Source of the DNA: Candidatus Cloacimonadales bacterium
Lineage (GTDB): Bacteria > Cloacimonadota > Cloacimonadia > Cloacimonadales > JAFGVF01
Length of the DNA stretch: 64,000 nucleotides
Reading direction: 5' to 3'
Assembly (NCBI GenBank): GCA_963678315.1
Contig: OY782781.1
Location: forward strand, 1,056,001 to 1,120,000
Numbering within the stretch: position 1 is the stretch's first letter; the number at the start of each line of letters is the position of its first letter. This document shows positions 47,375-64,000 of the stretch, in pieces. The translations under genes were made by a program, and so were the position numbers. The notes under the pieces were generated by a model. The model searched no databases. It saw only the letters and a program-made list of their open reading frames with translations, and had not been told where the DNA came from.

Positions 47375-47525
47375 AGCATCTCCTCTAATATATATTTTTT
47401 ACTTGAATTTTATTCATTATGTAATTTTTATATAGCTGATTATATTAGGCAAGTTTTTTTTTAACAAGCATTTTATGGAAACAGGGAAGGTAAAGAATAG
47501 AAGCCCTAGGAATAGTTAAACCTAG

Positions 47526-49040
47526 CCATGATTGAAATCATGGGCTTGGGCTACTACACCCCGATGAGGTAAAATGTATAATTGGATAATAGATTAATGG
47601 GATGATTTTATCCTTTTTCTATCCCGAAGGGATTAATTGTCCAAAGCCTAGCTTTTCAAAGCTAGGTTAAATGAATCCCCTCACCAGCATAGTCCTGAAA
47701 GGACTTCAAATGCCTTCTTTTAATCATTATGAAGAGATTAAGTCCCTTCAGGACTACAAATCTATCGGTGTTCTTTTACCCATGATTAAAATCATGGGCT
47801 TGGGCTCTACACCCCGATGAGGTAAAATGTATAATTGGATAATAGATTAATGGGATGATTTTATCCTTTGTTATCCCGAAGGGATTAATTGTCCAAAGCC
47901 TAGCTTTTCAAAGCTAGGTTAAATGAATCTCCTCACCAGCATAGTCCTGAAAGGACTTCAAATGCCTTCTTTTAATCATTATGAAGAGATTAAGTCCCTT
48001 CAGGACTACAAATCTATCGGTGTTCGTTTACCCATGATTAAAATCATGGGCTTGGGCTCTACACCCCGATGAGGTAAAATGTATAATTGGATAATAGATT
48101 AATGGGATGATTTTATCCTTTGTTATCCCGAAGGGATTAATTGTCCAAAGCCTAGCTTTTCAAAGCTAGGTTAAATGAATGCCCTCACCAGCATAGCCTG
48201 AAAGGACTTTTATGACATTTTAATCCCATATATATTTTGGATTATAAGGTATTTTATATTGATTCAAAAATTTAGTAAGTTCATTTTTAAAATCTGTTCT
48301 TTTATGATGTTCTTTCTGATTGCTAATATACTCAACAACTAAACTTACATCCTGTGGCTTGATTGAAAATGCTCCATAACCACTTTGCCAATTAAAATGA
48401 TAGTTCAATGTAAAAGTAACATTGACCCATTTTGATGTTGAGCCTTTCAAACGCTTCATGAAATCTGATAATGAATAATTTTTAGATAGTTCACATAAAA
48501 TATGAATATGGTCTGTGAAACCACCAATTTTGATTAGTTTTGAATCTAAAGATTTAATAATTCTACCTATATATTTATAGAGCTGTTCTTCAATCTCTGG
48601 TGTAATTGTATTTAATCGGTTCTTAGTACTAAACACAATATGTCGATAGTTTTTTACTAGTGATTGCCCCATAACCACTCCTTATATCTTTTAATGAACT
48701 CATGTAATATAATATATAATCGTAACTATTGTCAAATCATAAATAATTTTATTTTAGGAAAAAGTCCCTTCAGGACTACAAATCTATCGGTGTTCTTTTA
48801 CCCATGATTAAAATCATGGGCTTTGGATATTGTACCCCTTTGGGGTAAGATGAACATTTGATTACACACAAATAAATTCAATCTTTATTATCCTCGTTGG
48901 GGTTAAAATGAACAATTGGGTAATGTATAAACAGATTGATTGATTTACCTTTTTCTATCCCGAAGGGATTAATTGTCCAAAGCCTAGCTTTTCAAAGCTA
49001 GGTTAAATGAATCCCCTCACCAGCATAGTCCTGAAAGGAC
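47526..49040. repeat. Array of about 253-bp units built from two mutually inverted three-hairpin modules (A and B), enclosing tnpA1
   Basis: CCATGATT recurs at 47526, 47780 and 48032 (periods 254 and 252), and again upstream of tnpA; module B ATCCCGAAGGGAT...GCCTAGCTTTTCAAAGCTAGG...CCTGAAAGGAC occurs four times. Confidence 0.92.
48220..48672 (-). CDS. tnpA: IS200/IS605-family Y1 HUH transposase (tnpA1)
   Basis: HIVFSTKNR, DHIH (HUH), WQSGYGAF, YISNQKEHH; AGGAG RBS; TTGACA at 48735-48730. Confidence 0.92.
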   Translation of the reverse strand: MGQSLVKNYRHIVFSTKNRLNTITPEIEEQLYKYIGRIIKSLDSKLIKIGGFTDHIHILCELSKNYSLSDFMKRLKGSTSKWVNVTFTLNYHFNWQSGYGAFSIKPQDVSLVVEYISNQKEHHKRTDFKNELTKFLNQYKIPYNPKYIWD

Positions 49041-49055
49041 TTCAAGTGCCAAAGT

Positions 49056-50402
49056 CTAGCTCTTCTTCAACTCCTTAATCAACGTCTCAATATCAACTCG
49101 CATATCATTGTCTGCGTTAAATTTGGCATCAATCATTTTCTTAGCATGAAGAACTGTTGTATGGTCTTTTCTATTAAAGAAGCTTGCAATTTCTTTTAAG
49201 GATAATTGTGGTATCAACAGACTGATAAGGTACATAGCAACTTGTCTAGGGAAGGCAATATTTTTCTTACGAGTTTTATCCATTATTTGTGAACGAGTAA
49301 TGTTGTAAAAAGAACAGACTTTATCAACGATAGAATCTTCTGTTATATCTTTAGGTCTATCAGAAATCATATCAGCAAGAATCTCTAAAACTAGTTCCTT
49401 ATCAACATCATTAGGATTCATCTTATTGTAGGAGGCATAAGCTAGGATTCTGATTAGAGAGCCTTCTAGAGCACGCACAGAACTAGAAATATTATCAGCA
49501 ATAAATTCAATGATTTGGTCATCTATATATATATTTTGATTTTCAGCCTTTTTCTTCAAAATAGCAATTCTAGTTTCAAAATCAGGATTCTTAAGGTCTG
49601 CGACTAATCCTGATTCAAAGCGAGTAACCAGTCTATTTTCTAAGTCAGGAATATCTTTAGGAGGTCTATCACTTGTTAGAATAATCTGCTTTCCTGCTGA
49701 AGATAGAGCATTAAAAGTATGGAAAAACTCTTCTTGAGTTCCCTCTTTCTTAGAAAGGAAGTGAATATCATCAACAAGGAGAACATCAACATGTCTAAAC
49801 TTCTGCCTAAATTGAATCATTCTATTCTTCTTGATTGATTCAATCATTTCATTGGTGAACTCTTCTGAACTGATGTAATAAACGATTTTGCTGTTATCAC
49901 AGTCTAGAATATACTGACCTGCTGCTTGCATGAGGTGAGTTTTTCCCATTCCAGATTCCCCGTAAATAAATAGAGGGTTGTAAGTCATACCTGGAGCTTC
50001 TGCTACTCCCATTGCTGCTGAGTAGGCAAAATTACTGTTCTTACCAACAACAAACTGATCAAATGTATAAAATTGATTTAACTTAGGTAATTGAGTCTTT
50101 TTAATAAGATTTTTTTGAATAGGTGTAAATGATTTTTGGCTTGAATCTGTAGTTGAATTAGAGAATATAACTTCGAATTTTTGACCATATATGTTAAAAG
50201 CCAGCTCCGTGATTATCTGCATATAATTACTTTTTATAAAATCTGCAGCTACTTTAGTTGGAACTAATATGTGCAAGCGATTACCTTCTATTTTTGCAAG
50301 GTGTGTTTCGCTAAACCAAGTCTTAAAACTCTGTTCTTGTATATGATCTTCTAACTCATCTAATATGTTTTGCCAAATATCTTGATCCATTCTTACCTTC
50401 AT
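49056..50402 (-). CDS. dnaA: Chromosomal replication initiator DnaA
   Basis: YNPLFIYGESGMGKTHL, LLVDDI, QEEFFHTFN, RQVAMYL, RKDHTTVLHA. Confidence 0.98.
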   Translation of the reverse strand: MKVRMDQDIWQNILDELEDHIQEQSFKTWFSETHLAKIEGNRLHILVPTKVAADFIKSNYMQIITELAFNIYGQKFEVIFSNSTTDSSQKSFTPIQKNLIKKTQLPKLNQFYTFDQFVVGKNSNFAYSAAMGVAEAPGMTYNPLFIYGESGMGKTHLMQAAGQYILDCDNSKIVYYISSEEFTNEMIESIKKNRMIQFRQKFRHVDVLLVDDIHFLSKKEGTQEEFFHTFNALSSAGKQIILTSDRPPKDIPDLENRLVTRFESGLVADLKNPDFETRIAILKKKAENQNIYIDDQIIEFIADNISSSVRALEGSLIRILAYASYNKMNPNDVDKELVLEILADMISDRPKDITEDSIVDKVCSFYNITRSQIMDKTRKKNIAFPRQVAMYLISLLIPQLSLKEIASFFNRKDHTTVLHAKKMIDAKFNADNDMRVDIETLIKELKKS

Positions 50403-50419
50403 TATTCAAATTTATGTTT

Positions 50420-50745
50420 ATTTAAGCGTGCTTGCATTAGATTTTATTTGTATGAATATGAAAAATTCCCCTTTCCATATCGTCATATAGTATATTAGTA
50501 CTTATCCACAATTTTGCTTTGTTGCTAAATAATAATAACTTACACATTTTTACTAATGCAATAGGATAAATTTATATAGGTCTCACAACTTGTCAAGCGC
50601 TGAAAATCAAGTTAAAGAAGTAGTGAAAAAGACCTCTTACTCAAATTCTAGTAACTTATCCACATTCTTACACAATACAAAAAACACAATCTAGAGCTAT
50701 AACTAACTGTTAAATATGTACTTGCTATTTGGCAAAAAAATATTG
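50420..50745. promoter_or_regulatory. Putative oriC / dnaA autoregulatory region
   Basis: Perfect DnaA boxes TTATCCACA at 50502-50510 and 50656-50664, plus weaker TTACACA-like sites, in AT-rich DNA upstream of dnaA. Confidence 0.6.
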
Positions 50746-50785
50746 GTACTCAAGCTTCTAGCTTGATAAATAATGTTCAAAAGTA

Positions 50786-51108
50786 AAACCCCGAAGGGGT
50801 GGCATATATTAAGCCTGGATCTTGTACCCCATGTAACATGATATAAATGATTTGAGTCCCGAAGGGACGGCATAATGTTTAATCCAGAATGATTATTATG
50901 TATTAGTCCCGAAGGGGCGACATAAATTAAGCCAGGGCTGTGTCCTGCTTTGACTGAGTCTGGTACCCCATGTATGTTCGCAAAGCCTGAATCTTAAAAA
51001 CCCCAAAGGGGTGGCATATACTAAGCATGGGGTCTTGTACCCCATGTGGGGGATTGCACCCCATGTATTAGAGTTAGAGAAGTACCTAGCCCTGAAAGGG
51101 CGACATAA
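50786..51108 (+). repeat. Upstream three-hairpin modules of tnpA2 (CCCGAAGGG / CATGGGGT-ACCCCATG / GCCCTGAAAGGGC)
   Basis: About three tandem modules; mirrored in inverted orientation downstream of tnpA2. Confidence 0.88.
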
Positions 51109-51161
51109 AACTTGACAATATAACTATTTGAATTTTTTATATAAACTACTAGGAGGTAAAA

Positions 51162-51614
51162 ATGGGGCAATCGTTAGTAGTATCTTATTTCCACTTTGTA
51201 TTTAGTACAAAAAATAGGCACAACTCTATTAATGCAGATTTAGAACTTGAGCTTTATCCATACATAATCTCAATTACAAAAGAGCTAAAGTCGGATGTAA
51301 TAGCAATCGGTGGTTATTCTAACCATATACATATACTATGTCAATTATCAAAAAATATTTCAGTTTCCGAATATATCAGAAAGATTAAATCAAACACATC
51401 AAACTGGATTAACAAGAAAGATTTCCTACGATATCGTTTTAAATGGCAGACGGGTTATGGTGCTTTTACTGTACGTCCTTATGATCTAGATGTGATAATT
51501 AAATATATACATAATCAAAAAAAACATCATAAGAATATAAGTTTTGAAGATGAATTGATGAGCTTTGTTAAAAGCTACAAAATAGACTATGATGAACGTT
51601 ATATTTGGGAATAA
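51162..51614 (+). CDS. tnpA: IS200/IS605-family Y1 HUH transposase (tnpA2)
   Basis: HFVFSTKNR, NHIH, WQTGYGAF, YIHNQKKHH; AGGAGG RBS; TTGACA at 51112. Confidence 0.92.
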   Translation: MGQSLVVSYFHFVFSTKNRHNSINADLELELYPYIISITKELKSDVIAIGGYSNHIHILCQLSKNISVSEYIRKIKSNTSNWINKKDFLRYRFKWQTGYGAFTVRPYDLDVIIKYIHNQKKHHKNISFEDELMSFVKSYKIDYDERYIWE

Positions 51615-51621
51615 TGTTAAC

Positions 51622-52384
51622 TTATGTCGCCCTTTCAGGGCTTGAATTTTGTATGCTAACATACATGGGGTACAAGACCCCATGCTTAGTATATGTCACC
51701 CCTTCGGGGTTGTTAAAATCCAGATTTTGCTAACATACATGGGGTACAAGACTCAGTCAAAGCCTGACACGGCCCTGGCTTAGTATATGCCACCCCTTCG
51801 GGACTAAATAGCAAATAAGTCAACTATCCACGAATGGCCCTAATAAACACGAATAAAAGAATACAAAAAACATATTTAACACAAAGACACAAAAAAACAC
51901 TAAGCTACACAAATCCAGACCATAAACAATTAAACATCTAAACTCGTAAACATCTTATCTGTTAAATCAGTGTTTTCAGTGTTCTATTGTCTTTCTCTTT
52001 TCATTATTAATTTATCATTTTTAATTTATTTTATGCCACCCCTTCGGGACTCAATTCATTTATGTCATGTTACATGGGGTACAAGACTCAGTCAAAGCCT
52101 GACACAGCCCTGGCTTAGTATATGCCACCCCTTCGGGACTAAATAGCAAATAAGTCAACTATCCACGAATGGCCCTAATAAACACGAATAAAAGAATACA
52201 AAAAACATATTTAACACAAAGACACAAAAAAACACTAAGCTACACAAATCCAGACCATAAACAATTAAACATCTAAACTCGTAAACATCTTATCTGTTAA
52301 ATCAGTGTTTTCAGTGTTCTATTGTCTTTCTCTTTTCATTATTAATTTATCATTTTTAATTTATTTTATGTCACCCCTTCGGGG
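51622..52384 (-). repeat. Downstream inverted modules of tnpA2, including a 335-bp-period tandem duplication
   Basis: TTATGTCGCCCTTTCAGGGC (51622-51641) is the exact inverse of 51089-51108; the block starting ACATGGGGTACAAGACTC recurs at 51737 and 52072. Confidence 0.9.
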
Positions 52385-52441
52385 TTTTAATGGATAGAGT
52401 TTGATTCTAACACTTTAGCTATACTAGCCAGCTAACCTACA

Positions 52442-53893
52442 TTAAAACTGTCTAATAGTCCAATCAAGAGTGTTTTGCAACAGCTGATCTGGTGGATTTT
52501 TAATGAATTCTTGTTCCATCATCATTTTCATTAAAGAGCGAGCTTCTTCAATATCATGCTTTGCAATCTGGAATACTTCCTCAAAGCTCAAATCGACATT
52601 TGCAACTCCATCTTGGATTGCTTGCATGGCAACATCAGCCGCTTCTTGCGGGAATACTTGGGCTTCACTCATTGTAGGGATTATATTGTCAGGTGAAATT
52701 CCTCTTTTTTCTGCATAATCGGCTAAAGAATAAGCTGATCTAATAGCCATGTTATCTGTGATTTTTCTTGCTCTTACAGTTAAAGCACCTTTTAATATGC
52801 CTGGGAACCCTAATGAGTTATTAACTTGATTAGGGAAATCTCCTCTACCTGTTGCTGTTATGAAAGCACCTGCTTCTTTAGCAGCATAAGGATATATTTC
52901 AGGAACTGGATTAGCACAGGTAAACACGATAGCTTTTTCATTCATCATTTTAATCCATTCAGGTTTAACAGTATCTGGACCTGGTTTAGAAACAGCAATT
53001 AAAACATCAGCACCTTTCATAGCTACTTCTATGTCTTTGATTTTTTTAGGATTAGTTTTCTGACACAGTTCCCACTGTCTGTAGGCTAGTGGATTGCTTT
53101 CAAAGTCTTTTCTGTCTGAATCTAAAGCTCCATCAGCATCGAAGATTACCATGTCTTGACCAGACATTCCTGCTTTAAGAAGAATTGAGGCAATTGTAGA
53201 ATTAGCAGCACCAGCTCCAAGTAAAACAGCTTTAACAGAATCTATCTTCTTGTTAGCTAATTTTAGAGCATTAATAAGACCTGCTAGGGTTACAGAAGCT
53301 GTTCCTTGCGCATCATCATGCCAAACAGGAATATGGCAATCTTCTCTAAGTGAATCAAGAACTTTGTAGCAATTAGGTTGAGAAATATCTTCTAGATTCA
53401 CAGCACCAAAAGAAGGTTCAATCATCTTTACGAAATCAATCAGTTTATCTGGATCTGGATTGCCATTCTTATCTCTATTATTTACACATAATGCTACAGC
53501 ATCAATACCGCCGAGATACTTCATTAAAAAGGCTTTACCTTCCATGACACCTAGTCCACCGTGTGAACCGCAATCACCATCTCCCAACACCCTAGTTGAA
53601 TCAGAAACTACAGCAACTAAGTTACTTTTGTTAGAAAGATTATAGGCTTCAAGTTTATTGTCTCTGATTGTAGTAGAAACCTGAGAAACTCCAGGAGTGT
53701 ACCACACATTGAACCAGTTAAAACCATAAACTCCGGCTTTGGGAACTGTCTGCATTTTACCTTTATAGAATCTATGAGCATCTTCAGATAGCTTCTTCAA
53801 AAAGACTGTTTGAGCTTTTGCTTTCTGCTCTGCTGTAAAATGCTCTGGGAAAACATCACGTAAATTTGATAAATCTAGATTTAACTTCTTCAT
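52442..53893 (-). CDS. NAD(P)-dependent malic enzyme
   Basis: YTPGV, VMEGKA, NLEDI, WHDDAQGTA, GAGAA, ANPVPEI, TGRGDFPNQVNN. Confidence 0.93.
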   Translation of the reverse strand: MKKLNLDLSNLRDVFPEHFTAEQKAKAQTVFLKKLSEDAHRFYKGKMQTVPKAGVYGFNWFNVWYTPGVSQVSTTIRDNKLEAYNLSNKSNLVAVVSDSTRVLGDGDCGSHGGLGVMEGKAFLMKYLGGIDAVALCVNNRDKNGNPDPDKLIDFVKMIEPSFGAVNLEDISQPNCYKVLDSLREDCHIPVWHDDAQGTASVTLAGLINALKLANKKIDSVKAVLLGAGAANSTIASILLKAGMSGQDMVIFDADGALDSDRKDFESNPLAYRQWELCQKTNPKKIKDIEVAMKGADVLIAVSKPGPDTVKPEWIKMMNEKAIVFTCANPVPEIYPYAAKEAGAFITATGRGDFPNQVNNSLGFPGILKGALTVRARKITDNMAIRSAYSLADYAEKRGISPDNIIPTMSEAQVFPQEAADVAMQAIQDGVANVDLSFEEVFQIAKHDIEEARSLMKMMMEQEFIKNPPDQLLQNTLDWTIRQF

Positions 53894-54161
53894 TATAATC
53901 CTCACTGACTTGATAATTCAGCTTTGTTGTAAGCATCTTTTAGTCAAGAAATATTGAATGAAAAATCCTCAAAAGAACATTGAACACATGTTGAAAACAT
54001 CTGCTGAACTCACAAGATTTCAACATTAAACCTAGTGCATTATTTGGGTTGAAAGCCTTTTTTTAGAAGGATAATATACTTCAGCCTTAATAGCCTCCTT
54101 GAAAAAGTGGCCTTTTTTTAAGGTGGGGCATAGGCAAGAAGGGAGTTAGGAGTGAGGACAA

Positions 54162-54238
54162 ACTGGGAACGCTGTGCCTTTACTGGGAACGCTGGCTGCT
54201 AGCCGGCCTACACTGGGAACGCTGCCGGATAGCCGGCC
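54162..54238 (+). repeat. Three REPs upstream of RAYT1
   Basis: ACTGGGAACGCT... three times. Confidence 0.85.
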
Positions 54239-54303
54239 AACACTTTTTCATTGACAAAAAACAAAAACCATTCCCTATTATATAAATGACAATGGGAGGA
54301 CAA

Positions 54304-54825
54304 ATGCATAAGTTGAAAGGTATGTTTGATAGAGGGTATTTACCACACTATGATTTTGATCATTTATATCAATTTATTACTTATAGGTTATATGATTCTG
54401 TTCCAAAAGATGTAATTGCTTCTTGGAAAGACGAATTGATAAATAATGATAAACTAACGGATATAGAAAGAAGAATAGTTTTAGAAAGAAAAATTCATAA
54501 ATATGAGGATGCTGGACATGGATGTTGTTATTTAAGATTGCCTAAAGTAAATCAAATTGTAGAAGAAAATCTATTATTTCATAATGGTAAAAAATATGAT
54601 ATGATTGAATATAAAATAATGCCAAACCATGTTCATGTTCTGATCAGAGTAATTGAAAATAAAAGCTTGTCAACAATTGTTCATTCTTGGAAATCATACA
54701 CTTCTAAAGAAATCAATAAATTATTAAATCGTAGTGGACAGGTGTGGATGAGAGAGTATTATGATAGATATATTAGAAATCAACAGCATTTTGCAAAAGT
54801 AATTGAGTATATAAGGAATAATTAG
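54304..54825 (+). CDS. REP-associated tyrosine transposase-like HUH nuclease (RAYT1)
   Basis: YLPH, QFITYRLYDS, MPNHVH, HSWKS, WMREYYDRYIRN, EYIRNN; GGAGG RBS before ATG 54304. Confidence 0.88.
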   Translation: MHKLKGMFDRGYLPHYDFDHLYQFITYRLYDSVPKDVIASWKDELINNDKLTDIERRIVLERKIHKYEDAGHGCCYLRLPKVNQIVEENLLFHNGKKYDMIEYKIMPNHVHVLIRVIENKSLSTIVHSWKSYTSKEINKLLNRSGQVWMREYYDRYIRNQQHFAKVIEYIRNN

Positions 54826-54853
54826 TTATCATTTATAACTTTGTTATAAATTA

Positions 54854-55058
54854 GCCGGCTAGCAGCCAGCGTTCCCAGTATTGGCCGGCTATCCGGCAGT
54901 AGCCGGACTAAAGGCACAGCGTTCCCAGTAGAAGCCGGCACGGAGGCCAGCGTTCCCAGTGTTGGCCGGCTATCTGGCAGTGGCCGGACTAAAGGCACAG
55001 CGATCCCAGTAAAAGCCGGCTATCCGGCAGTGGCCGGCTAGCAGCCAGCGTTCCCAGT
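54854..55058 (-). repeat. Five inverted REPs downstream of RAYT1
   Basis: ...GCG(T/A)TCCCAGT five times. Confidence 0.88.
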
Positions 55059-55106
55059 ATATCATAAATGTTACTAAGCTAATATTAAGTAAGAGGTAAG
55101 TTAAAC

Positions 55107-56402
55107 ATGAAAGATGAGATATTTCAAGAAGAAAGCTATGAAATCCCTTTAGCAGAGCGAATGCGTCCTAATGAGATAAAGTCTGTCTTAGGGCAAGAAC
55201 ACTTGCTAGAATATGGGTCTTTACTCATGAAGATGATTATATCCGATAAGATTAAATCATTTATAATGTGGGGACCTCCAGGCTGTGGTAAAACAACAAT
55301 AGCCAAGATAATCAAAGCAAGAACACAGAAAGAGTTTCTAGAATTCTCTGCAGTTCTTTCTGGTATCAAAGAAGTGAAAGATGTAATGCTTGATGCTGAA
55401 AAGAGATTTAAACTCACCCATCAACCAACAATTATCTTTATAGATGAAATACATCGATTCAATAAGTCTCAGCAGGATGCTTTTCTACCATTTGTAGAGG
55501 CTGGTACTGTTGTTTTGATTGGTGCTACTACAGAAAACCCTTCTTTTGAAGTAATCTCTGCTTTATTATCAAGGTGTCATGTCTTTGTGCTAAAGAACCT
55601 TTCGGTTCAAGATATGCTTCACATTCTTGAAAATGCTAAAGAAAAATATTATCCAAGTTTACCTCAAGAGATTCTATTGTATATAGCTAATGCTAGTGGG
55701 GGAGATGCAAGAAGAGGACTAAACTATCTTGATATGTTGTGCAGTGTTGAAGAAAACTATCAGGATCTGACTTTAGAGAAGGCAAAATCAATACTTAAGA
55801 AGAAGTCAATGTTCTATGATAAAGACAGGGAAGAACATTATAACGTAATATCAGCACTCCATAAATCACTGAGAGGTAGTGACCCCCAAGCAGGCTTATA
55901 TTGGCTTGCTCGAATGTTAGAAGCAGGCGATGACCCTATGTACATAGCAAGAAGACTTGTTCGCTTTGCTACAGAAGATGTAGGACTTGCTGATCCCAAT
56001 GCTATCACACAAGCAATAGCCTGTAAAGAAGCTGTCCATTTCTTAGGAATGCCAGAAGCAAATACTGCATTAGGGCAACTTGTAGTCTATCTGGCTACAG
56101 CCCCTAAAAGCAATTCTGTCTATTCTGCTTATAAACAAGCAAAGATATCCGCTAATGAAACTTCCCATCTAGGAGTCCCTATTCATATAAGAAACGCCCC
56201 AACCAAACTTATGAAAGAACTAGATTATGGAAGTGAATATAAATATGACCATGATTATGAAAATGCCTATTACTATCAGAAATACTTCCCAGACTTAATG
56301 AAAGAAGAAGTCTTCTACCAACCATCTAAATTCGGTTTTGAAAAAGATATTCAGAAACGCCTTGATTGGTGGAAGAAACTTAAAGAGACACAAGAGGAGT
56401 GA
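55107..56402 (+). CDS. rarA: Replication-associated recombination protein A (RarA/MgsA)
   Basis: PLAERMRP, WGPPGCGKTT, DEIHRFNK, GATTENPSF, SALHKSLRGSD. Confidence 0.96.
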   Translation: MKDEIFQEESYEIPLAERMRPNEIKSVLGQEHLLEYGSLLMKMIISDKIKSFIMWGPPGCGKTTIAKIIKARTQKEFLEFSAVLSGIKEVKDVMLDAEKRFKLTHQPTIIFIDEIHRFNKSQQDAFLPFVEAGTVVLIGATTENPSFEVISALLSRCHVFVLKNLSVQDMLHILENAKEKYYPSLPQEILLYIANASGGDARRGLNYLDMLCSVEENYQDLTLEKAKSILKKKSMFYDKDREEHYNVISALHKSLRGSDPQAGLYWLARMLEAGDDPMYIARRLVRFATEDVGLADPNAITQAIACKEAVHFLGMPEANTALGQLVVYLATAPKSNSVYSAYKQAKISANETSHLGVPIHIRNAPTKLMKELDYGSEYKYDHDYENAYYYQKYFPDLMKEEVFYQPSKFGFEKDIQKRLDWWKKLKETQEE

Positions 56403-56579
56403 GGAGTTACTGGGAACGCTCGGCCTCCGTGCCGGTCTCTTGAAACTGGGAACGCTCGGCTGCTAGCCGGTCTCTTGAAACTGGGAACGCCGGCTGCTAG
56501 CCGGTCTCTTTGTCAAGAGAAGTTTAAAATGTTACACTTTTGGAAGTATAAACTGTTACACTTTGGTTAAAAAAATAAG

Positions 56580-57308
56580 TTAAATTTTACCTTTCATTCT
56601 ATAGCTATCACCATCCATCGTGATTAGCTGTGCATGGTGTAGAAGTCTATCTAATATTGCTGAAGTAATAACATTATCTCCAAAAGCAGATCCCCACTCT
56701 TGAAATAGTTTGTTTGATGTTATAACAATAGATCTAAATTCATATAGTTCGCTAACTAGTTTAAAGAACATACTTGAAGATATTTCCTTTATTGGTAAAT
56801 AGCCGATTTCATCAATAATTATTAATTCATTTTTACATAGTTTCTTAATAAACTCTTTCAGGCTTTTCTCATTGGATGCTATTAACATATCATCTAGTAA
56901 ATCATTAAATGTGTAAAATTTTACATTATATCCCTTTTGTATTGCTTCATATCCCAAAGCTAATGCTATATGCGTTTTACCAACTCCAGGAGGTCCCATA
57001 AATATCTTATTTTCTCTGTTATCTATCCAATCAAAATCCAACCACTCATTGACCATCCTTTTAGTTACACTGTGTTGATATTTATAATCAAACTCTTCAA
57101 ATGTCTTTACTGAAGGGAAATTTGACCTTTTTATTTTTAGCTTAATAGCTGTTTGATTTCTGCTATTAACTTCATTTCTGATAATATACGATAAAAACTG
57201 CTGATTAGAGAGTTCTTTCTCTCTTCCATGCTGTAAATATGATTCAATGTTATTGAGTATATGTCGACACCTTATCCTGAATAAATCTTTCTTTAATTGT
57301 TCCATCAT
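56580..57308 (-). CDS. istB: IS21 helper ATPase
   Basis: GPPGVGKTH, IIDEIGY, ITSN, AILDRLLH, GDSYR. Confidence 0.95.
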   Translation of the reverse strand: MMEQLKKDLFRIRCRHILNNIESYLQHGREKELSNQQFLSYIIRNEVNSRNQTAIKLKIKRSNFPSVKTFEEFDYKYQHSVTKRMVNEWLDFDWIDNRENKIFMGPPGVGKTHIALALGYEAIQKGYNVKFYTFNDLLDDMLIASNEKSLKEFIKKLCKNELIIIDEIGYLPIKEISSSMFFKLVSELYEFRSIVITSNKLFQEWGSAFGDNVITSAILDRLLHHAQLITMDGDSYRMKGKI

Positions 57309-58789
57309 TTTTTTACCATCCTATCATAATCTGATAAATCTCTTGCTAGTTTTGAACTACTTGTGTTATTATTACTTTGGTTGTTTTGTATATAATCATT
57401 TATCTTTAATTGCTTTGTGAGAGCTTCAAGAACATTTTCAACTTTGCTTGCGCGTAGTTGTGAAAATGCTAAAGATTGATTAATTACAAAATTCCAGTCA
57501 AGACGGTTATATTCATTATATAGCCGTCTTATTGCTCTTAATTGTTCTCGTGGGTGACTTGTGTTTTCTTTTAAAATCCTGGTCACAAAAACGTCATAAT
57601 TTTGATATCCTTTCAGAAGTTCTAAAACGTCATCCTTTAGAGTTTCTAATTTTTCTGAATAATCAATATAATGTGCTTGATTTATAGTCGGCTTTGACTT
57701 TCCATATTTTACAGAATGACTAGCTACTTGTGCTAGTGTTAAGCTATCTATTATCAAAAGTTTGCTATTTAATTCTTCTACTAAAACTTCTTTTTTTTGA
57801 TAAATATAAGGAACTGAATATTTATTACCTTTCCAAGATATTATTCCTTGTTTATCTACTTTTCTCAATACTCTATTGTTTGGTATATAAGTTCTCATTA
57901 AATCCTTTTCAGCTTTAAATACTTCTGTCGGAATTTCTAAAGTTGTGCTATGCTCTCTATTATTTACCATTTCAAACCAATCTTTTGAACGCATTTCTAT
58001 CTCACTTAACCCTGAAAACTTATCTCCATAAAGAAAATCTTCTTTTACTTCTCTTACATGGCGTTCCACAAGTCCTTTAGTTTGAGGGTCATAACCTTCG
58101 CATATATAATAGTTTAAATTGTGTTTGTTTAGGAACTGTTCAAATAGTTTATTTAACCATACTTCCCTATATTTTTCTCTTATTACAACTAACTTTGTTT
58201 GGTCATAAACTAATTGCTTTGGTAAGCATCTAAAATAATTAAAACAGGCTTCATGAGCTTGTATAAAATCATTAGTATTATATGGTCTTAATTGGAAATG
58301 AGCATACACCATTCTTGAGTATGAGATTTTAAAGGCTACAAAATAAACTTTTATCTTTTCACCTGTTGTGAGTAATACTTTTTGTTCTCCCGGATCTACT
58401 TGTATCTGTACTCCTGGTTCATACGTTACAGGGGTAAAATAACGTCTACAACGAGGCTTTATTGCTTCTTTGAGTTTATTTATGTAATTCGAAAATGCTC
58501 GCTCTGATATAACTATATCGGGGTATTTCTTTTGGAATTTACGATGAAGTTTGGTTGTGCGTATTCGTGGATATTCCTTAATCCAAAGGCTTAACAACTC
58601 TTTATAAGACTCTAAAATACTGTTTCGTCTAAAGATATTGCTCTTATATTCTGTATAATCTTTTAACGACATCTTTCTGAACTTCTGCACTGTCGTTGGT
58701 GATATAGCTAATTGCCTAGCTGTTTCTCTTACACTTAAGTTTAAATTCTGACACGATTTTATCTTGTGATACATGCTTTCCTCTATCAT
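57305..58789 (-). CDS. istA: IS21 transposase
   Basis: N-terminal HTH, PGVQIQVD, YSR, YDQ, PQTKGLVER, N-x-YSVP. Confidence 0.93.
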   Translation of the reverse strand: MIEESMYHKIKSCQNLNLSVRETARQLAISPTTVQKFRKMSLKDYTEYKSNIFRRNSILESYKELLSLWIKEYPRIRTTKLHRKFQKKYPDIVISERAFSNYINKLKEAIKPRCRRYFTPVTYEPGVQIQVDPGEQKVLLTTGEKIKVYFVAFKISYSRMVYAHFQLRPYNTNDFIQAHEACFNYFRCLPKQLVYDQTKLVVIREKYREVWLNKLFEQFLNKHNLNYYICEGYDPQTKGLVERHVREVKEDFLYGDKFSGLSEIEMRSKDWFEMVNNREHSTTLEIPTEVFKAEKDLMRTYIPNNRVLRKVDKQGIISWKGNKYSVPYIYQKKEVLVEELNSKLLIIDSLTLAQVASHSVKYGKSKPTINQAHYIDYSEKLETLKDDVLELLKGYQNYDVFVTRILKENTSHPREQLRAIRRLYNEYNRLDWNFVINQSLAFSQLRASKVENVLEALTKQLKINDYIQNNQSNNNTSSSKLARDLSDYDRMVKK

Positions 58790-59147
58790 GGTTATCCTCA
58801 AAATTTGTATTTTGAGGAGTGTACCATTTTATACTTCCATTACTGTACCACTTTATAATTCTATTAACAGTCTCTTGAAGCTGTGAGCGACGGCCTCCGT
58901 GCCGGTCTCTTGAAACTGGGAACGCCGGCCTCCGTGCCGGTCTCTTGAAACTGGGAACGCTCGGCCTCCGTGCCGGTCTCTTGAAACTGGGAACGCCGGC
59001 CTCCAGTCGGTCTCTTGAAACTGTGAGCACCGGCCTCTGTGCCGGTTTCTTGAAACTGGGAACGCCGGCCTCTGTGCCGGTCTCTTGAAACTGGGAGCGC
59101 CGGCCTCCGTGCCGGCTAATTTATAACAAAGTTATAAATGATGACAA

Positions 59148-59669
59148 CTAATTATTCCTAATATACTCAATTGTTCTAGCAAAGTGTTCTTCATTCCTAA
59201 TAAATCTATCATAGTATTCTCTCATCCAAATCTTACCTTCAATGTTCAAAAACTTCTTTATTCTATTTGCTGAATACGATTTCCATGAGTGGACTATTGA
59301 AGATAAGCTATAGCCAATATAAACTTGTATCAAGACATGTACATGATTAGGCATTATCTTGTATTCTATCAAATCATACTTCTTGTAATTATAAAAATTT
59401 AGAACATCAACCATTAATTGCTTTACCTTAGAGATTCTAAGTATACATGCCCCATACCCCATATCCTCATATTTATGAATTCTTCTTTCTAAGATTATAC
59501 GAGTGCTTTTGTCATCTATCTTTGAATCTCTAGCTAATTCTTCCTTCCATATTTGAATAACTTCAGCTGGAACAGAATCATATAATCTAAATGTAATGAA
59601 TTGACATTTTCCATCAACATCAACATGAGGAAGATAACGCCTGTCGAAGACACCTTTAATCTTGTTCAT
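59148..59669 (-). CDS. REP-associated tyrosine transposase-like HUH nuclease (RAYT2)
   Basis: Paralogue of RAYT1: YLPH, QFITFRLYDS, MPNHVH, WMREYYDRFIRN, EYIRNN. Confidence 0.88.
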   Translation of the reverse strand: MNKIKGVFDRRYLPHVDVDGKCQFITFRLYDSVPAEVIQIWKEELARDSKIDDKSTRIILERRIHKYEDMGYGACILRISKVKQLMVDVLNFYNYKKYDLIEYKIMPNHVHVLIQVYIGYSLSSIVHSWKSYSANRIKKFLNIEGKIWMREYYDRFIRNEEHFARTIEYIRNN

Positions 59670-59775
59670 AAACCCTCCTTGATTGTTTATAATATTGAGA
59701 AAGAAATAATTGTCAATTTATTTTGATAAAATAGAGAAAAATTTAAACAATACTTTTATGAAAAAGTGTTAGTTA

Positions 59776-59898
59776 GCCAGCACGGAGGCTGGCGCTCCCA
59801 GTTTTAGCCAGCACGGAGGCTGGCGCTCCCAGTGTTAGTTAGCCAGCACGGAGGCTGGCGCTCCCAGTTTTAGCCAGCACGGAGGCTGGCGCTCCCAG
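59776..59898 (-). repeat. Four identical REPs upstream of RAYT2
   Basis: GCCAGCACGGAGGCTGGCGCTCCCAG four times. Confidence 0.9.
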
Positions 59899-59904
59899 GA
59901 TAAG

Positions 59905-59934
59905 AAAAAAGACCACCCTTTCAGGTGGTCTTTT
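59905..59934 (-). terminator. Intrinsic (possibly bidirectional) terminator
   Basis: AAAAAAGACCACC-ctttca-GGTGGTCTTTT. Confidence 0.85.
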
Positions 59935-59958
59935 AATTTATATGTTATTTAAAATTAA

Positions 59959-62010
59959 TTATTTAATTTTAACAACTTTATAAGATTTTGTTTGTGAAGG
60001 TGTTGTCATTCTGAAGAAATAGATACCGTTAGCAGCTCTGTTTCCTTTAGAGTCTCTACCATTCCATTGGAATGTGTGGTCGCCAGCAGAGAAGTTATCT
60101 CTTGAAACAACTTGACCTAATAGGTTATAAACAGTTACTGTTGCAGTTTCGCCTTCTTTAACTCTTAAGTCAGCTTGAGTTGAACCTGCGAATGGTGTTG
60201 GGTAAGGATTTCCAAGAACTGTTTCAGTTGGAAGTTGTGGAACGTCATTAGCTTTTACAACAACCATGAATGATTGGCTTAAGTCAACTTCATTACTTAA
60301 TTCTCTAGTTTCTAACCAGTAGTAGTAAGTACCTTCAGCAACTTCATCATCAACGAATGAATAGCTAGCTGTTTGAGTTGTATTTGTAGGAGCAATCATT
60401 GAACCATTAACTCTGATAGCATTTTCAACATCTTCTGTTTCAGCTCTAAGAACGTTGAAACCTAAAAGATTAGATTCTGATGCTGTTACCCAGTTTAATG
60501 TAACATATTCATCAGCATGTGCTACAGCTGTGAATGATGAAAGTTCAACAGGAAGTGTACCGTCAGTAACAACGATTTCACCAGCTTCTTTAGCACCTGT
60601 AAAGTCAACAGTGATTTCAAAAGATGTACCAGGAATCCAAACAGCAGGAACTATGTTACCATTAAACCATACAATACCATTAACAAATGAAGTAGGAATA
60701 ACGAAAGTATAAGCACCAGCATAACCTTGAGCTACTTGAAGAACTTGACCAATTGTACCAGAAACTGGGAAGCTAGGAATCCAATCACCAAGTTCAACAG
60801 CTGCAGGAATTTCAGGAGTCCAATCATTAGGAACAGGAACTGTTACAGTAACTGTTACAACAGGTTGACCTTCTACTACAGGAGCTGCAATTTCAGCTAC
60901 AGTTGTAAATGTTGAAGTTGGCATATCATCGCCTTCAGGATATATTCTATCTTCACCAGGAACCCATTTTGAAGCTTTAGCTGTTTTAGCTGTTTTAACA
61001 TCAGTAAGGATATAAGGTTTTACACCCCATGTGTATTCTGTATTATAAGCTAAGTTTTCCATTGTGTATGTTAATTCAGTAACATCACCCATGTCTTCGT
61101 CATTAATCCATATTTCATAACCATCAACAGCAACACCATTGTGTGTCCATGTTAAATCTACAGATTCAACAGCAACATCAGTTGCGCCATCTACAGGAGA
61201 TGTGTATGTTGCCCAGCTAGGGTTGATTATAGGCATATCCATTGTTGTGAAACCAACAGTGTTAGCTGATGCATCAAAGTCAGTAGGATATAATTTTTCT
61301 TTTGCTTCATTCATTACAAAGTAAGGTTTAACATACCATACATATAATGTAGAATAAGCTAATTCAGGATCATAAGTTAATTCAGTTACATCAGCAACCA
61401 TTGCATTGTTAACCCAAACTTCATAACCAGCAGAATAACCTTCATCAGGTGTGTTATTACCAGCTGTCCATGTCATTACTGCATCTAAAGCAACATCAAC
61501 TGCACCATTTGCAGGAGCTGTGATTGTTACTTCGTTTGGAAGTGTTGGTTCTACTGCGCCAACAGCTTTAAGCACAACAGGTGCAGCTTCAGTATGAGTA
61601 GAACTTGCACCTCTAGTAACTTGAACTTCACCTTGAGATTCAAGAGATTCACCATTAGCGTTTACAAAATTAAACTTAGCAACAACAGCTCCACTCCAAT
61701 GTTCCATTGGAGCCATTTGCACTGAAAGTTGACCAGTTGTAGGATTGTAACCAGTAGATGTTACATTTAAATCATCAGTAGCAGGCCAATTCCAATAGAT
61801 TTCACTTTTTGCTTGGCCTGGGTATACCATATCCCAAAAACCAGGAAGCACAGCTTCAGATAGGTGGTATTCAATTGCATGTAAGCCCACAACTTCTGGG
61901 ATGTCACCATTTTCATCAACAACGTTAAAGATAACAGAGTATGGCGTACCCTGTGCAAAGATAGCTGTTAATGCTAATAAAAATAATGAAATGATTAATA
62001 ATTTTTTCAT
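59959..62010 (-). CDS. Acidic secreted protein with two FN3/Ig-like repeats, an LPVELSSF motif and a divergent C-terminal sorting domain
   Basis: Signal peptide; P-x-(N/D)GA-x-DV...YST/YNT-x-Y-x-W-x-VKPY twice; TLPVELSSFTA; NPYPTPF...YNLLGQ...WNGRD...GIYFFR. Confidence 0.8.
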   Translation of the reverse strand: MKKLLIISLFLLALTAIFAQGTPYSVIFNVVDENGDIPEVVGLHAIEYHLSEAVLPGFWDMVYPGQAKSEIYWNWPATDDLNVTSTGYNPTTGQLSVQMAPMEHWSGAVVAKFNFVNANGESLESQGEVQVTRGASSTHTEAAPVVLKAVGAVEPTLPNEVTITAPANGAVDVALDAVMTWTAGNNTPDEGYSAGYEVWVNNAMVADVTELTYDPELAYSTLYVWYVKPYFVMNEAKEKLYPTDFDASANTVGFTTMDMPIINPSWATYTSPVDGATDVAVESVDLTWTHNGVAVDGYEIWINDEDMGDVTELTYTMENLAYNTEYTWGVKPYILTDVKTAKTAKASKWVPGEDRIYPEGDDMPTSTFTTVAEIAAPVVEGQPVVTVTVTVPVPNDWTPEIPAAVELGDWIPSFPVSGTIGQVLQVAQGYAGAYTFVIPTSFVNGIVWFNGNIVPAVWIPGTSFEITVDFTGAKEAGEIVVTDGTLPVELSSFTAVAHADEYVTLNWVTASESNLLGFNVLRAETEDVENAIRVNGSMIAPTNTTQTASYSFVDDEVAEGTYYYWLETRELSNEVDLSQSFMVVVKANDVPQLPTETVLGNPYPTPFAGSTQADLRVKEGETATVTVYNLLGQVVSRDNFSAGDHTFQWNGRDSKGNRAANGIYFFRMTTPSQTKSYKVVKIK

Positions 62011-62022
62011 TTTCTCTCCTTT

Positions 62023-62670
62023 TTATTTACGTGCTCTAGCACTTCTTCTTGTTACATTTTTAGAAGCTGGAGCATTCCAACCTGTATTATCAGTAGTTGC
62101 ATAAATCAATAAACCATCGCCTATTGAAATTTCAAAGTCATTAACATCTACACCAACTGTAAACTGAGACCAGTTACTGATATCGTTATCCCAAGTAGCT
62201 ATTGATTCAATATTTCCTATAGCCTCAGCAATGTCTGAAACATTAATTAATTCTGAACGATTCAACGGAACCATGATTTGATTGAAGTCATTCCCAACAA
62301 TGTCATAGTTAGCTTGACTTGGTAAATCACCAGCACAATAGAAATCAATATTTTCAGTGCCAGCAAGATAAACTAATACAGATGTTCCAGCAGGAACCTC
62401 AAAATCATTAACATCAACACCAACTGTGAATTGAGACCAGTTACTAATTGAATTATCCCATTTAGCTAAAGATTCAACATCTCCACCGATAGCTGTTGCT
62501 AATTCTGAAACAGTAGTTATGTCACTATTCATAGGAACTGCAATCATGTTAAAATCATTTGCAATTAATTCATACTTTACATATCCGACAACTTCACTTG
62601 GTTCTGAGTCCAAAGCGAAGATAACAGTCACCGACGCAATTAAAATCGCTAATATAAGCAACTTTTTCAT
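62023..62670 (-). CDS. Secreted protein with an internal duplication and a basic C-terminal tail
   Basis: Signal peptide; NDFN-x-I-x-VP...WDN-x-ISNWSQFTVGVDVNDFE twice; GGAGG RBS. Confidence 0.75.
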   Translation of the reverse strand: MKKLLILAILIASVTVIFALDSEPSEVVGYVKYELIANDFNMIAVPMNSDITTVSELATAIGGDVESLAKWDNSISNWSQFTVGVDVNDFEVPAGTSVLVYLAGTENIDFYCAGDLPSQANYDIVGNDFNQIMVPLNRSELINVSDIAEAIGNIESIATWDNDISNWSQFTVGVDVNDFEISIGDGLLIYATTDNTGWNAPASKNVTRRSARARK

Positions 62671-62994
62671 AAACAAAACCTCCAAGGTTTTTATTTTTTG
62701 TTTTGGTCACCACACCACTACTCAGTCAATTTAGGATATAAATTCTAACTTGTCAAACATTTTTTTTAGCTTTTAAGTTTTTGGACTAATAATTCACATA
62801 ATATTAACATTTATAGGCTTCTAGGGGCATTTTGCTAGATAAGAAAACTGGCTGATTATTCAAGTAATTCCATGAAATTACTAATAATTTTGCCTAAAAG
62901 TAGATTATTTTTGTGATTCTTTTTTAAGAAATGTAAAAATTAGTTAATTATTATGAAAAATGAGTAAAATATGTTGATTTTTATCAAAACACTG

Positions 62995-64000
62995 GCCAGA
63001 GATAAATGGGAAAAATGAAAAATGAAAGCCACGGATTACACAGATAAGCACGGATAAAGACAAAATTAAAAATAGGAAGAATGATAGCCACGAATGGCAC
63101 AAATAATCACTGATAAATGAAAAGTTAAAATTGAAGAATGAAAAATTAATCATTTTAATCAGTAAAATCAGTGTCATCAGTGTTCTATTAAATATAACCA
63201 CGAAATACACGAAAAGACACGAAAGTAAGTATTAAATGCTTTTGGCCACGGATAACACTGATAGTCACGGATAAAGGGGAAGAAATGAAGAATGATGAAT
63301 GAAGAATGATTGAAGAATGATTGAAGAATTGAGGAGATGCTATCCATAAAAACCCCGAAGGGGTGGCATATACTAAGCATGGAGGCTTGCCCTCCATGTA
63401 ATAGTTAAAAAATAAAAAAAGCCCTGAAAGGGCGACATAAAGGCTAGGCTATATCTGCAAACAGGAAAGTTTACCACGAAAAGCACGAATAACACGAAAA
63501 ACAGTAAAATTATTTAGGACTGGACAGATAGCCAAGAATGGCACAAATCTCACGAATAAGAAGAGATATAACCACGAAACACACGAAAAGACACGAAAGA
63601 AAGTCTTAATTGTTTTTAGCCACGGATAACACAGATAAGCACGGATAAAGACAAAATTAAAAATAGGAAGAATGATAGCCACGAATGACACAAATCTCAC
63701 GAATAATAAGAGATATAACCACGAAACACACGAAAAGACACGAAAGTAAGTATTAAATGCTTTTAGCCACGGATAACACTGATAGTCACGGATAAAGGGG
63801 AAGAAATGAAGAATGATGAATGAAGAATGATTGAAGAATTGAGGAGATGCTATCCATAAAAACCCCGAAGGGGTGGCATATACTAAGCATGGAGGCTTGC
63901 CCTCTATGTAATAGTTAAAAAATAAAAAAAGCCCTGAAAGGGCGACATAAAGGCTAGGCTATATCTGCAAACAGGAAAGTTTACCACGAAAAGCACGAAA
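62995..64000 (+). repeat. Non-coding mosaic of CAC-triplet repeats, (A/G)AATGAA runs and tnpA2-type modules, with a 521-bp-period duplication
   Basis: CCACGGATAACACAGATAAGCACGGAT and ACCACGAAA(T/C)ACACGAAAAGACACGAAA recur; the block starting at 63192 repeats at 63713. Confidence 0.85.

Follow-up and report, generated by a model that had tools for sequence, protein, structure and literature searches.

The stretch of DNA analyzed here, a window of 64,000 nucleotides (nt) from a Candidatus Cloacimonadales genome, carries between dnaA and a methylmalonyl-CoA decarboxylase alpha-like gene a small gene for a Y1/HUH nuclease, tnpA1, embedded in a tandem array of hairpin modules of two kinds, A and B. 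Gene and array lie between the dnaA stop codon (49056) and the start of the decarboxylase-like gene (47374), and all three genes are on the minus strand. From left to right the eight modules and the gene are ordered A' B A B A B tnpA A B, with the following features:

47500..47525, plus strand: apparent decayed B-type middle hairpin fused to the A' middle hairpin (a sequence reading, single case)
47526..47570, minus strand: module A', truncated; middle hairpin, linker and outer hairpin, starting within the middle hairpin and without an inner hairpin
47621..47704, plus strand: module B1, three hairpins; 47620-47666 is a whole-model match to Acido-Lenti-1 (27 bits)
47705..47741, no strand: 37-nt spacer between facing inner hairpins; second copy at 47957-47993
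47742..47823, minus strand: module A2
47873..47956, plus strand: module B2
47994..48075, minus strand: module A3
48125..48207, plus strand: module B3, which faces the stop codon of tnpA1; one nucleotide is deleted from its inner hairpin in the assembled strain
48220..48678, minus strand: tnpA1, Y1/HUH nuclease with subclass 1.2 signatures (DHIH, WQ, YISNQKEHH, C-terminal tail); likely start ATG 48672
48706..48735, minus strand: sigma-70-like promoter match for tnpA1 (11/12), a pattern match only, the region having 5 such sites against 8.5 in shuffles
48764..48846, minus strand: module A4, upstream of tnpA1 and in the same orientation
48847..48956, no strand: 110-nt spacer, internally duplicated, that includes a decayed second outer hairpin (48890-48903), homologous to the 49-nt gap
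48957..49040, plus strand: module B4, ending 15 nt before the dnaA stop codon

The layout given in a preliminary description of the locus holds, and its B-to-A gaps of 37, 37 and 556 nt are exact; the A-to-B gaps, absent from that description, are 50, 49, 49 and 110 nt. The tandem period is 252 nt, with 98% identity between copies. That such an array is an assembly artefact is scarcely credible. The whole stretch is spanned by no listed piece, and the strain copy numbers given here were inferred from short-read unitig depth, but the copies are distinguished by private substitutions, and in run X1, whose listed pieces over the locus are identical to the window sequence, the unitig of the 37-nt spacer had a depth of 58.4 compared to 27-31 for its single-copy neighbors, that is, two copies, as assembled. 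Where a collapse of the array had been considered, short-read depth keeps the assembled copy number, and the array is confirmed to be real. The depth of the left-spacer unitig was 23.1 compared to 10-12 in run X2 and 23.6 compared to about 17 in run X4; in run X6, the left spacer lay within one single-depth unitig and the B unitig was at twice the background. Other strains apparently carry fewer array units. The T missing from the inner hairpin of B3 in X1 is present in X2, X4, and X6. No inference was drawn from the zero cover over tnpA2 (see below) among the pieces of X6. Two differences within tnpA1 were seen in other runs, at window positions 48344 and 48644, both at second codon positions and amino-acid-changing; they are too few to interpret.

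Full A and B modules are 82-84 nt long with three hairpins each, close to the 80 nt first estimated, and A' alone is truncated. Each module consists of an outer hairpin of 5-6 base pairs (bp) with a 3-nt loop, a 13-nt linker ending in AAAG, an 8-bp middle hairpin, a 22-25-nt linker, and an inner hairpin. Folding as single-stranded DNA (ssDNA) gave three hairpins per module, with z scores of -3.2 (B) and -3.7 (A) on the strand described here; folding as RNA likewise worked. The preliminary description had A and B sharing their terminal hairpin and differing in their middle stems. The middle hairpin sequence is indeed where they differ, but B can be aligned end to end with reverse-complemented A, so that the homology extends over the whole length.

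TnpA1 passes the NCBIfam IS200 model (64.1 bits, cut-off 55) and fails the model for REP-associated tyrosine transposases (RAYTs; 24.9 bits, cut-off 80; REP, repetitive extragenic palindrome), as expected for the IS200-type enzyme originally proposed. Its motifs are DHIH, WQ (in WQSGY), and YISNQKEHH, with the catalytic Y---Q and without the Y---NP of class 2; the catalytic H, H, and Y and the WQ are invariant or nearly so among 80 aligned homologues. The protein is 150-152 residues long. ATG 48672, giving 150 residues, is the more likely start because most single-domain homologues align from query residue 3. Helices at residues 128-138 and 145-148 follow the catalytic helix, and the AlphaFold model (predicted local distance difference test score 94.9) has two extra C-terminal helices compared to IS608 and ISDra2. 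The TnpA proteins of these two elements were nonetheless the closest folds found by Foldseek (E 7e-10, template-modelling score 0.65), E. coli TnpA-REP being a weaker match. TnpA-Y1 subclass 1.2 is described by DH[IV]H, WQ, and Y---Q--HH, about 148 residues, a C-terminal tail of about 30 residues, low copy number, and divergent paralogues (Quentin 2018, PMC6006769); by these published motifs, length, tail, and copy number, TnpA1 has the signatures of subclass 1.2. In our tree, subclass-1.2-type proteins are set apart by long branches from three ordinary IS200 and three class-2-like rows.

The genome holds nine Y1 genes. Three are of subclass 1.2, with 47-59% mutual identity, and form one clade (support 95/93); near-identical copies of tnpA1 were not found in the genome. 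Within 1 kb, TnpA1 is accompanied only by A/B modules, TnpA2 only by modules named Z/Zp, and TnpA3 only by modules X/Y, which have two hairpins rather than three; none of these modules was found within 1 kb of the six other Y1 genes. tnpA3 likewise lies inside a tandem array of doublets, so the arrangement of a gene in a spacer slot occurs twice in this genome. In the window, the locus of tnpA2 comprises the following features:

50782..51108, plus strand: Z-family modules upstream of tnpA2
51162..51614, plus strand: tnpA2, a paralogue 52% identical to TnpA1, on the opposite side of dnaA and with its own module family Z
51622..52145, minus strand: Z-family modules downstream of tnpA2, inverted

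A 335-nt tandem duplication containing Z-family modules lies 3' of tnpA2 (window 51800-52350).

Modules were counted genome-wide with 33-nt probes allowing up to 9 mismatches, at which a few A/B calls are marginal. This gave 22 B, 27 A, 72 modules of the TnpA2 family (Z, Zp), 65 of the TnpA3 family (X, Y), and 5 orphans; two 33-nt probes with at most 8 mismatches gave 82 matches in the genome, some places being matched by both, and 0 in a shuffled genome. Neighboring A and B modules within 2.5 kb of each other were paired A-with-B and inverted in 27 of 28 cases, the exception being a fold-back. Convergent B-A pairs occur without tnpA at 12 intergenic loci outside the window, and at two of these the pair is interrupted by another insert. 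Gene-free B-spacer-A units such as those postulated in the preliminary description therefore exist, and the IS200-type enzyme is, as it supposed, distributed like a RAYT, with a single-copy gene, inverted flanks, and gene-free units. Dispersed pairs keep their hairpins and lengths, and their linkers and spacers are unrelated, save in one recent subfamily; the spacers are of similar length between loci and show no sign of gene remnants. Outside open reading frames (ORFs) of at least 120 residues lay 181 of 182 modules (at most 7 mismatches), and module flanks are mosaics without fixed edges. A free hairpin descriptor applied genome-wide was rejected as too noisy (459 hits). The idea that the linkers are captured spacers or guides was also dropped: 5 of 36 matched elsewhere with at most 2 mismatches, compared to 0 of 36 shuffled, one of the five being an insertion sequence (IS) end and the other four 2-mismatch matches; no phage match to the array was found.

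At G000:C1:1710410-1712125 in this genome, a B module contains, at its middle hairpin, a 486-residue transposase-like ORF bounded by short inverted ends, and that hairpin (about 20 nt) is present on both sides; the end sequence of this insert recurs in at least 4 other places. An insert of about 200 nt with short inverted ends interrupts the linkers of two B modules (G000:C1:1433150-1433410 and 1717085-1717260), and a similar piece follows dnaA in L082 and L084. A fold-back palindrome centered on an A middle hairpin is grafted onto a Zp inner hairpin at G000:C1:1156480-1156560. A fifth module type, V, has five copies (G000:C1:1145063, 1145265, 2715082, and 2786236 among them) and no neighboring Y1 gene.

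A homologue of TnpA1 at E 1e-20 was present in 32 of 61 related genomes, and the Q--HH motif in all 30 loci retrieved from relatives; L016-L029 turned out to be unrelated proteins and were removed from every count. From 20 modules (15 relative loci plus the window, kin not being independent) we built a covariance model, R1. In their alignment, every one of the 17 pairs has changed on both sides, a result equalled by none of 500 shuffles and by none of the slid controls, the pair structure being derived from the same aligned sequences; stems covary, and linkers keep length, not sequence. Among 25 subclass-1.2 loci that had played no part or only a limited one in training, model R1 hit 20, compared to 0 of 7 ordinary IS200 loci, and the homologue flanks had none of the ordinary left and right ends that the preliminary description had weighed as a contrary outcome. 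In Acidobacteriota, the gene was found in 30 of 151 genomes and the model hit 16 of 25 loci, while the single match among 10 dnaA control loci is a real module (in G011). A strict hairpin descriptor applied to gene flanks matched 20 of 38 loci (shuffles: 3 of 190); of the ordinary IS200 loci it matched 0 of 6 (shuffles: 2 of 30). Many homologues lie in tandem arrays, and the alternating form also occurs at gene-free loci, such as one in G046 with the same 252-nt period. The combination of tnpA with modules is family-wide and not peculiar to this locus. Subclass 1.2 is tabulated with 'REP: no' (Quentin 2018, PMC6006769), a lack not borne out here; the modules at 20/25 and 16/25 loci therefore contradict the table's REP entry, not the protein assignment.

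In one relative, G007, an extra doublet lies 2.3 kb upstream of tnpA with one gene between; this 635-residue gene stands between two doublet copies (L060:3262-5169), and G005 has other genes there, a cassette-like difference. Many proteins of 270-320 residues (P0001-P0012 and others) contain two matched Y1 stretches and are apparent tandem fusions of subclass-1.2-like domains, which would be single-chain dimers.

Could tnpA1 belong to an active IS200-like element with unusual inverted compound ends, its gene selfishly mobile and the B-A units its derivatives by deletion, in the manner of miniature inverted-repeat transposable elements? The score against the IS200 model and the IS608/ISDra2-like fold are compatible with this, the polarity of B-spacer-A is that of B-tnpA-A, the site next to dnaA is lineage-specific, and Bacteroidota are interleaved with close relatives of this genome in the tree, which suggests horizontal movement. 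A conserved link of the gene to dnaA had been considered and was rejected, since no tnpA lies within 1.5 kb of dnaA in any of 10 relatives. An active element is nevertheless unlikely: besides the lack of near-identical gene copies and of fixed ends, and the dispersed-unit spacers that differ between loci, the gene is almost absent from plasmid and viral collections. A protein search of 72,556 plasmid records at E 1e-20 gave one match, on a 632-kb non-mobilizable replicon, and a pattern scan of viral contigs one match at 28%, an ordinary IS200. In addition, the gene has the same neighbors in two Chryseobacterium species and the same downstream gene in G005 and G007.

The B module also aligns with Acido-Lenti-1 (Rfam RF01687; Weinberg 2010, PMC2864571). 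All 46 positions of the model align to the reverse complement of the B outer hairpin, linker, and middle hairpin, so that B reproduces the two-hairpin plan with its 13-nt linker (model positions 1-46), at a score of 27 bits, below the 37-bit cut-off; A modules were unlisted at E up to 5. In this genome, 16 of 38 matches pass the cut-off, mostly in the TnpA2 family, and in Acidobacteriota nine passing matches flank tnpA, in 5 of 20 loci. Of 28 genomes with RF01687, 22 had a tnpA match, compared to 10 of 33 without (Fisher p 3e-4, overstated since kin are not independent). We then compared the two strands of the module, defining the GNA strand by linker and middle hairpin alone. On it, the loops of the small hairpins were GNA in 206 of 266 cases and the reverse form in none (38 versus 0 among 65 distinct hairpins); in relatives, where the strand was chosen by the model, which favors this reading, GNA prevailed by 25 versus 1 of 49 and 33 versus 0 of 37. 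GNA triloops are unusually stable in DNA (PMC3201870). Loops of this kind confined to one strand therefore argue for an ssDNA rather than an RNA structure, pointing to a module that acts as ssDNA on the strand opposite to the Rfam model, and suggest that the orphan Acido-Lenti-1 'RNA' is really the ssDNA target of a tnpA system.

That the modules act instead as RNA, whether as an Acido-Lenti-1 small RNA, as terminators, or as mRNA stabilizers, with the tnpA link secondary, is very unlikely. The motif is curated in Rfam as a small RNA, the modules also fold as RNA, and module clusters favor the gaps between convergent genes (26 of 96 compared to 108 of 744 gaps, p 5e-4). Yet the GNA loops and AG foot are on the strand complementary to the Rfam model, and in the part of the seed alignment available, most rows are repeats lying close together in a single assembly; where the neighboring genes run in the same direction, modules show no preference for the strand of the genes (17 versus 18); and each module family tracks one tnpA paralogue. 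An RNA-level side effect may exist alongside the DNA role.

How the enzyme would work on these modules can be outlined from the known relatives. The left guide of IS608 is AAAG at the hairpin foot (PMC3597680), and the foot of the middle hairpin is AAAG in both A and B, with TTAG, GTAG, and ATAG commonest in relatives. TnpA-REP cuts to either side of a REP at loosely defined sites, and it may amplify bacterial interspersed mosaic elements (BIMEs) in a rolling-circle-like manner (PMC3333891, PMC8266576). Most likely, TnpA1 would bind the module on the GNA strand, nick nearby, and rejoin. On transiently single-stranded DNA, a TnpA1 dimer would recognize the middle hairpin, with the AAAG foot as guide, together with the small GNA hairpins; its catalytic tyrosine would nick loosely specified sites on either side and then rejoin the ends. 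A convergent B-A pair would present one active module per strand, and it is therefore the pair that would be excised, copied, and put back elsewhere with variable flanks. Tandem copies at one locus could arise by nick-primed rolling-circle-like copying or by host slippage, and the gene would be mostly sedentary, occasionally moving or duplicating with its flanks.

Searches for a cleavage motif at module flanks and edges found none. A CT signature was absent among 59 5' and 52 3' breakpoint edges, and the 3' edges favor AA and GT because of the module ends. We also tried the IS608 rule pairing an AAAG guide with a TTAC site, which could not be established: TTAC was present upstream of 5 of 12 independent B flanks and 0 of 15 A flanks, and upstream of X modules it is largely the reverse complement of the neighboring GTA loop. 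As one hint of a cut site, the first base of A' directly follows TTAC at the foot of its own middle hairpin, and A' abuts the apparent decayed B middle hairpin, seemingly cut at the symmetrical position; this is a single case.

For the array step alone, the 252-nt tandem copies may well have been made by host slippage or unequal recombination without TnpA1, a possibility to which we give somewhat less than even odds. The A-spacer-B doublet is directly repeated on both sides of the gene, B1 and B4 being 99% identical over 103 nt and A2 and A4 98% over 65 nt, and these repeats are therefore good substrates for homologous recombination. Hairpins promote slippage, and other tandem duplications lie nearby, such as the 335-nt repeat after tnpA2. 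On the other hand, the 252-nt unit combines pieces of A4 and B4 with a 37-nt spacer that is new, so that no flank has been copied plainly, and the same alternating arrays recur beside homologues and at gene-free loci. Host mechanisms could still be at work in all of these cases.

Taken together, we favor, with a probability of roughly 70%, a REPtron/BIME-like system made of an IS200-class enzyme (TnpA-Y1 subclass 1.2) and its cognate three-hairpin ssDNA module, which is strictly a member of neither the IS200 nor the RAYT family. A number of observations weigh against this interpretation. The TTAC excess at B flanks has a corrected p of 0.09 and was first noticed by eye, although A and B both have the AAAG foot, and the 5' edges of shared segments carry no marking dinucleotide. 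Four of the 20 loci positive for model R1 are training rows (L003, L004) or near-copies of training rows (L002, L032); the model had no match at 5 of 25 subclass-1.2 and 9 of 25 Acidobacteriota loci. Some homologous loci thus escape the model, mostly where the tail is shorter. In the Chryseobacterium and Algivirga genomes, both of Bacteroidota, modules were found only beside the gene, among 150 scored of about 1,300-1,500 candidates. Six of 28 genomes with RF01687 hits lack a tnpA match to this query, and 10 of 33 without hits have one. The G-T versus A-C asymmetry is not significant (39:24, p 0.08; 26:13, p 0.05), if in the same direction, and the replichore bias of modules is weak (46 of 74, p 0.047, origin uncertain). 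Over longer times the gene has changed place, as the relatives lacking it at dnaA and the mixing of phyla in the tree attest, and a comparison of G005 and G007 for an empty site found the upstream genes to differ and no clean one.

A further-reaching version, which we offer tentatively and with some doubt, is that subclass 1.2 either records a second, independent domestication of an IS200 transposase, one that is very widespread, or survives as an intermediate toward RAYTs. Its substrate would be a multi-hairpin ssDNA scaffold read through DNA-specific GNA loops, Acido-Lenti-1 would be that scaffold and not an RNA, and the strict pairing of A with B, one per strand, would allow the enzyme to cut, shuffle, and amplify intergenic DNA at sites guided by four bases. 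If true, this would be a natural re-programmable ssDNA recombinase with a new mode of recognition.

The preliminary description had called the locus a candidate for an undescribed system. Its parts are in print, namely the subclass, RAYT-like statistics, and two of the three hairpins (as RF01687), but we found no paper joining subclass 1.2 to such modules or to Acido-Lenti-1 in the literature covered, outside of which lay most subscription papers and Weinberg Additional File 1. The favored system would supply the cognate DNA of a transposase subclass reported without any, and a testable intermediate between selfish IS200 elements and domesticated RAYTs. Acido-Lenti-1, an abundant orphan Rfam family still treated as a regulatory noncoding RNA (10.64898/2026.02.09.704811), gains a likely identity. 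With three paralogues and three module sets, this one genome is a ready specificity matrix for biochemistry, and the locus adds strict A-with-B pairing and an apparent strain-to-strain change in array length.

The neighborhood of dnaA is rich in Y1 genes: six of the nine lie within 22 kb (G000:C1:1104220-1126242, that is, window 48220-64000 and beyond), and two class-2-like Y1 genes are in the window at about 54583-54822 (plus strand) and 59151-59393 (minus strand). Two perfect DnaA-box matches lie between dnaA and tnpA2 (window 50502 and 50656). The cumulative GC-skew minimum is at 740 kb, away from dnaA at 1,105 kb, and we therefore do not call the dnaA region an origin.

Compared with known systems, TnpA1 and its modules have in common with IS608 and ISDra2 the fold, the HUH and Y---Q motifs, and AAAG at the 5' foot of a hairpin. 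Those elements carry a single left and a single right hairpin, both on the same strand; their ends are fixed, their copy number is high, and they often include tnpB, none of which applies here. In place of such IS200/IS605 traits we found inverted three-hairpin modules without fixed edges, no near-identical copies, and near absence from plasmids. Subclass 1.2 as published (PMC6006769) agrees in motifs, length of about 150 residues, tail, low copy number, and divergent paralogues, and differs in that here conserved three-hairpin modules stand on both sides of the genes and occur dispersed as well. IS200 Group 3, called 'RAYT-like', with its lack of duplicates, absence from plasmids, and abundant flanking 16-mers (Bertels 2017, PMC5581495), shares the IS200 class and the lack of duplicates, its repeats not being described in the accessible text; it is probably the same as subclass 1.2, matched by description and not by the group's sequences. 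Among RAYTs, only Groups 2 and 3 accompany REPINs (Bertels and Rainey 2022, 10.1101/2021.07.10.451892). TIRtrons (Di Nocera 2013, PMC3733652) likewise consist of Y1 genes set between long inverted repeats, and these repeats can make up dispersed families, but their enzymes, the TIRYTs, belong to subclass 2.1 in 20 of 26 cases and otherwise to 2.2 or 2.5, and carry a GGGGWSAS motif, a different subclass and module from those described here. Rfam RF01687 (PMC2864571) covers two of the three hairpins of the module and omits the third. A further parallel is the E. coli REPtron with its BIME-2 (PMC3333891, PMC8266576), in which a single-copy Y1 gene is also bordered by inverted pairs of two palindromes and BIME-2 likewise forms intergenic, IS-targeted tandem arrays, conserved in locus and varying in number between strains. 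Its enzyme is of class 2 (Y---NP), whereas that described here is of class 1 (Y---Q), and its REPs are single hairpins of 20-40 nt with a GTAG foot, whereas the modules here have 82-84 nt, three hairpins, and an NNAG foot at the middle hairpin. The defining REPtron trait, a single-copy gene flanked by cognate palindromes that are dispersed as inverted intergenic pairs, is present at this locus. The logic is that of REP/BIME systems, and the tnpA1 system therefore extends a known kind of system.

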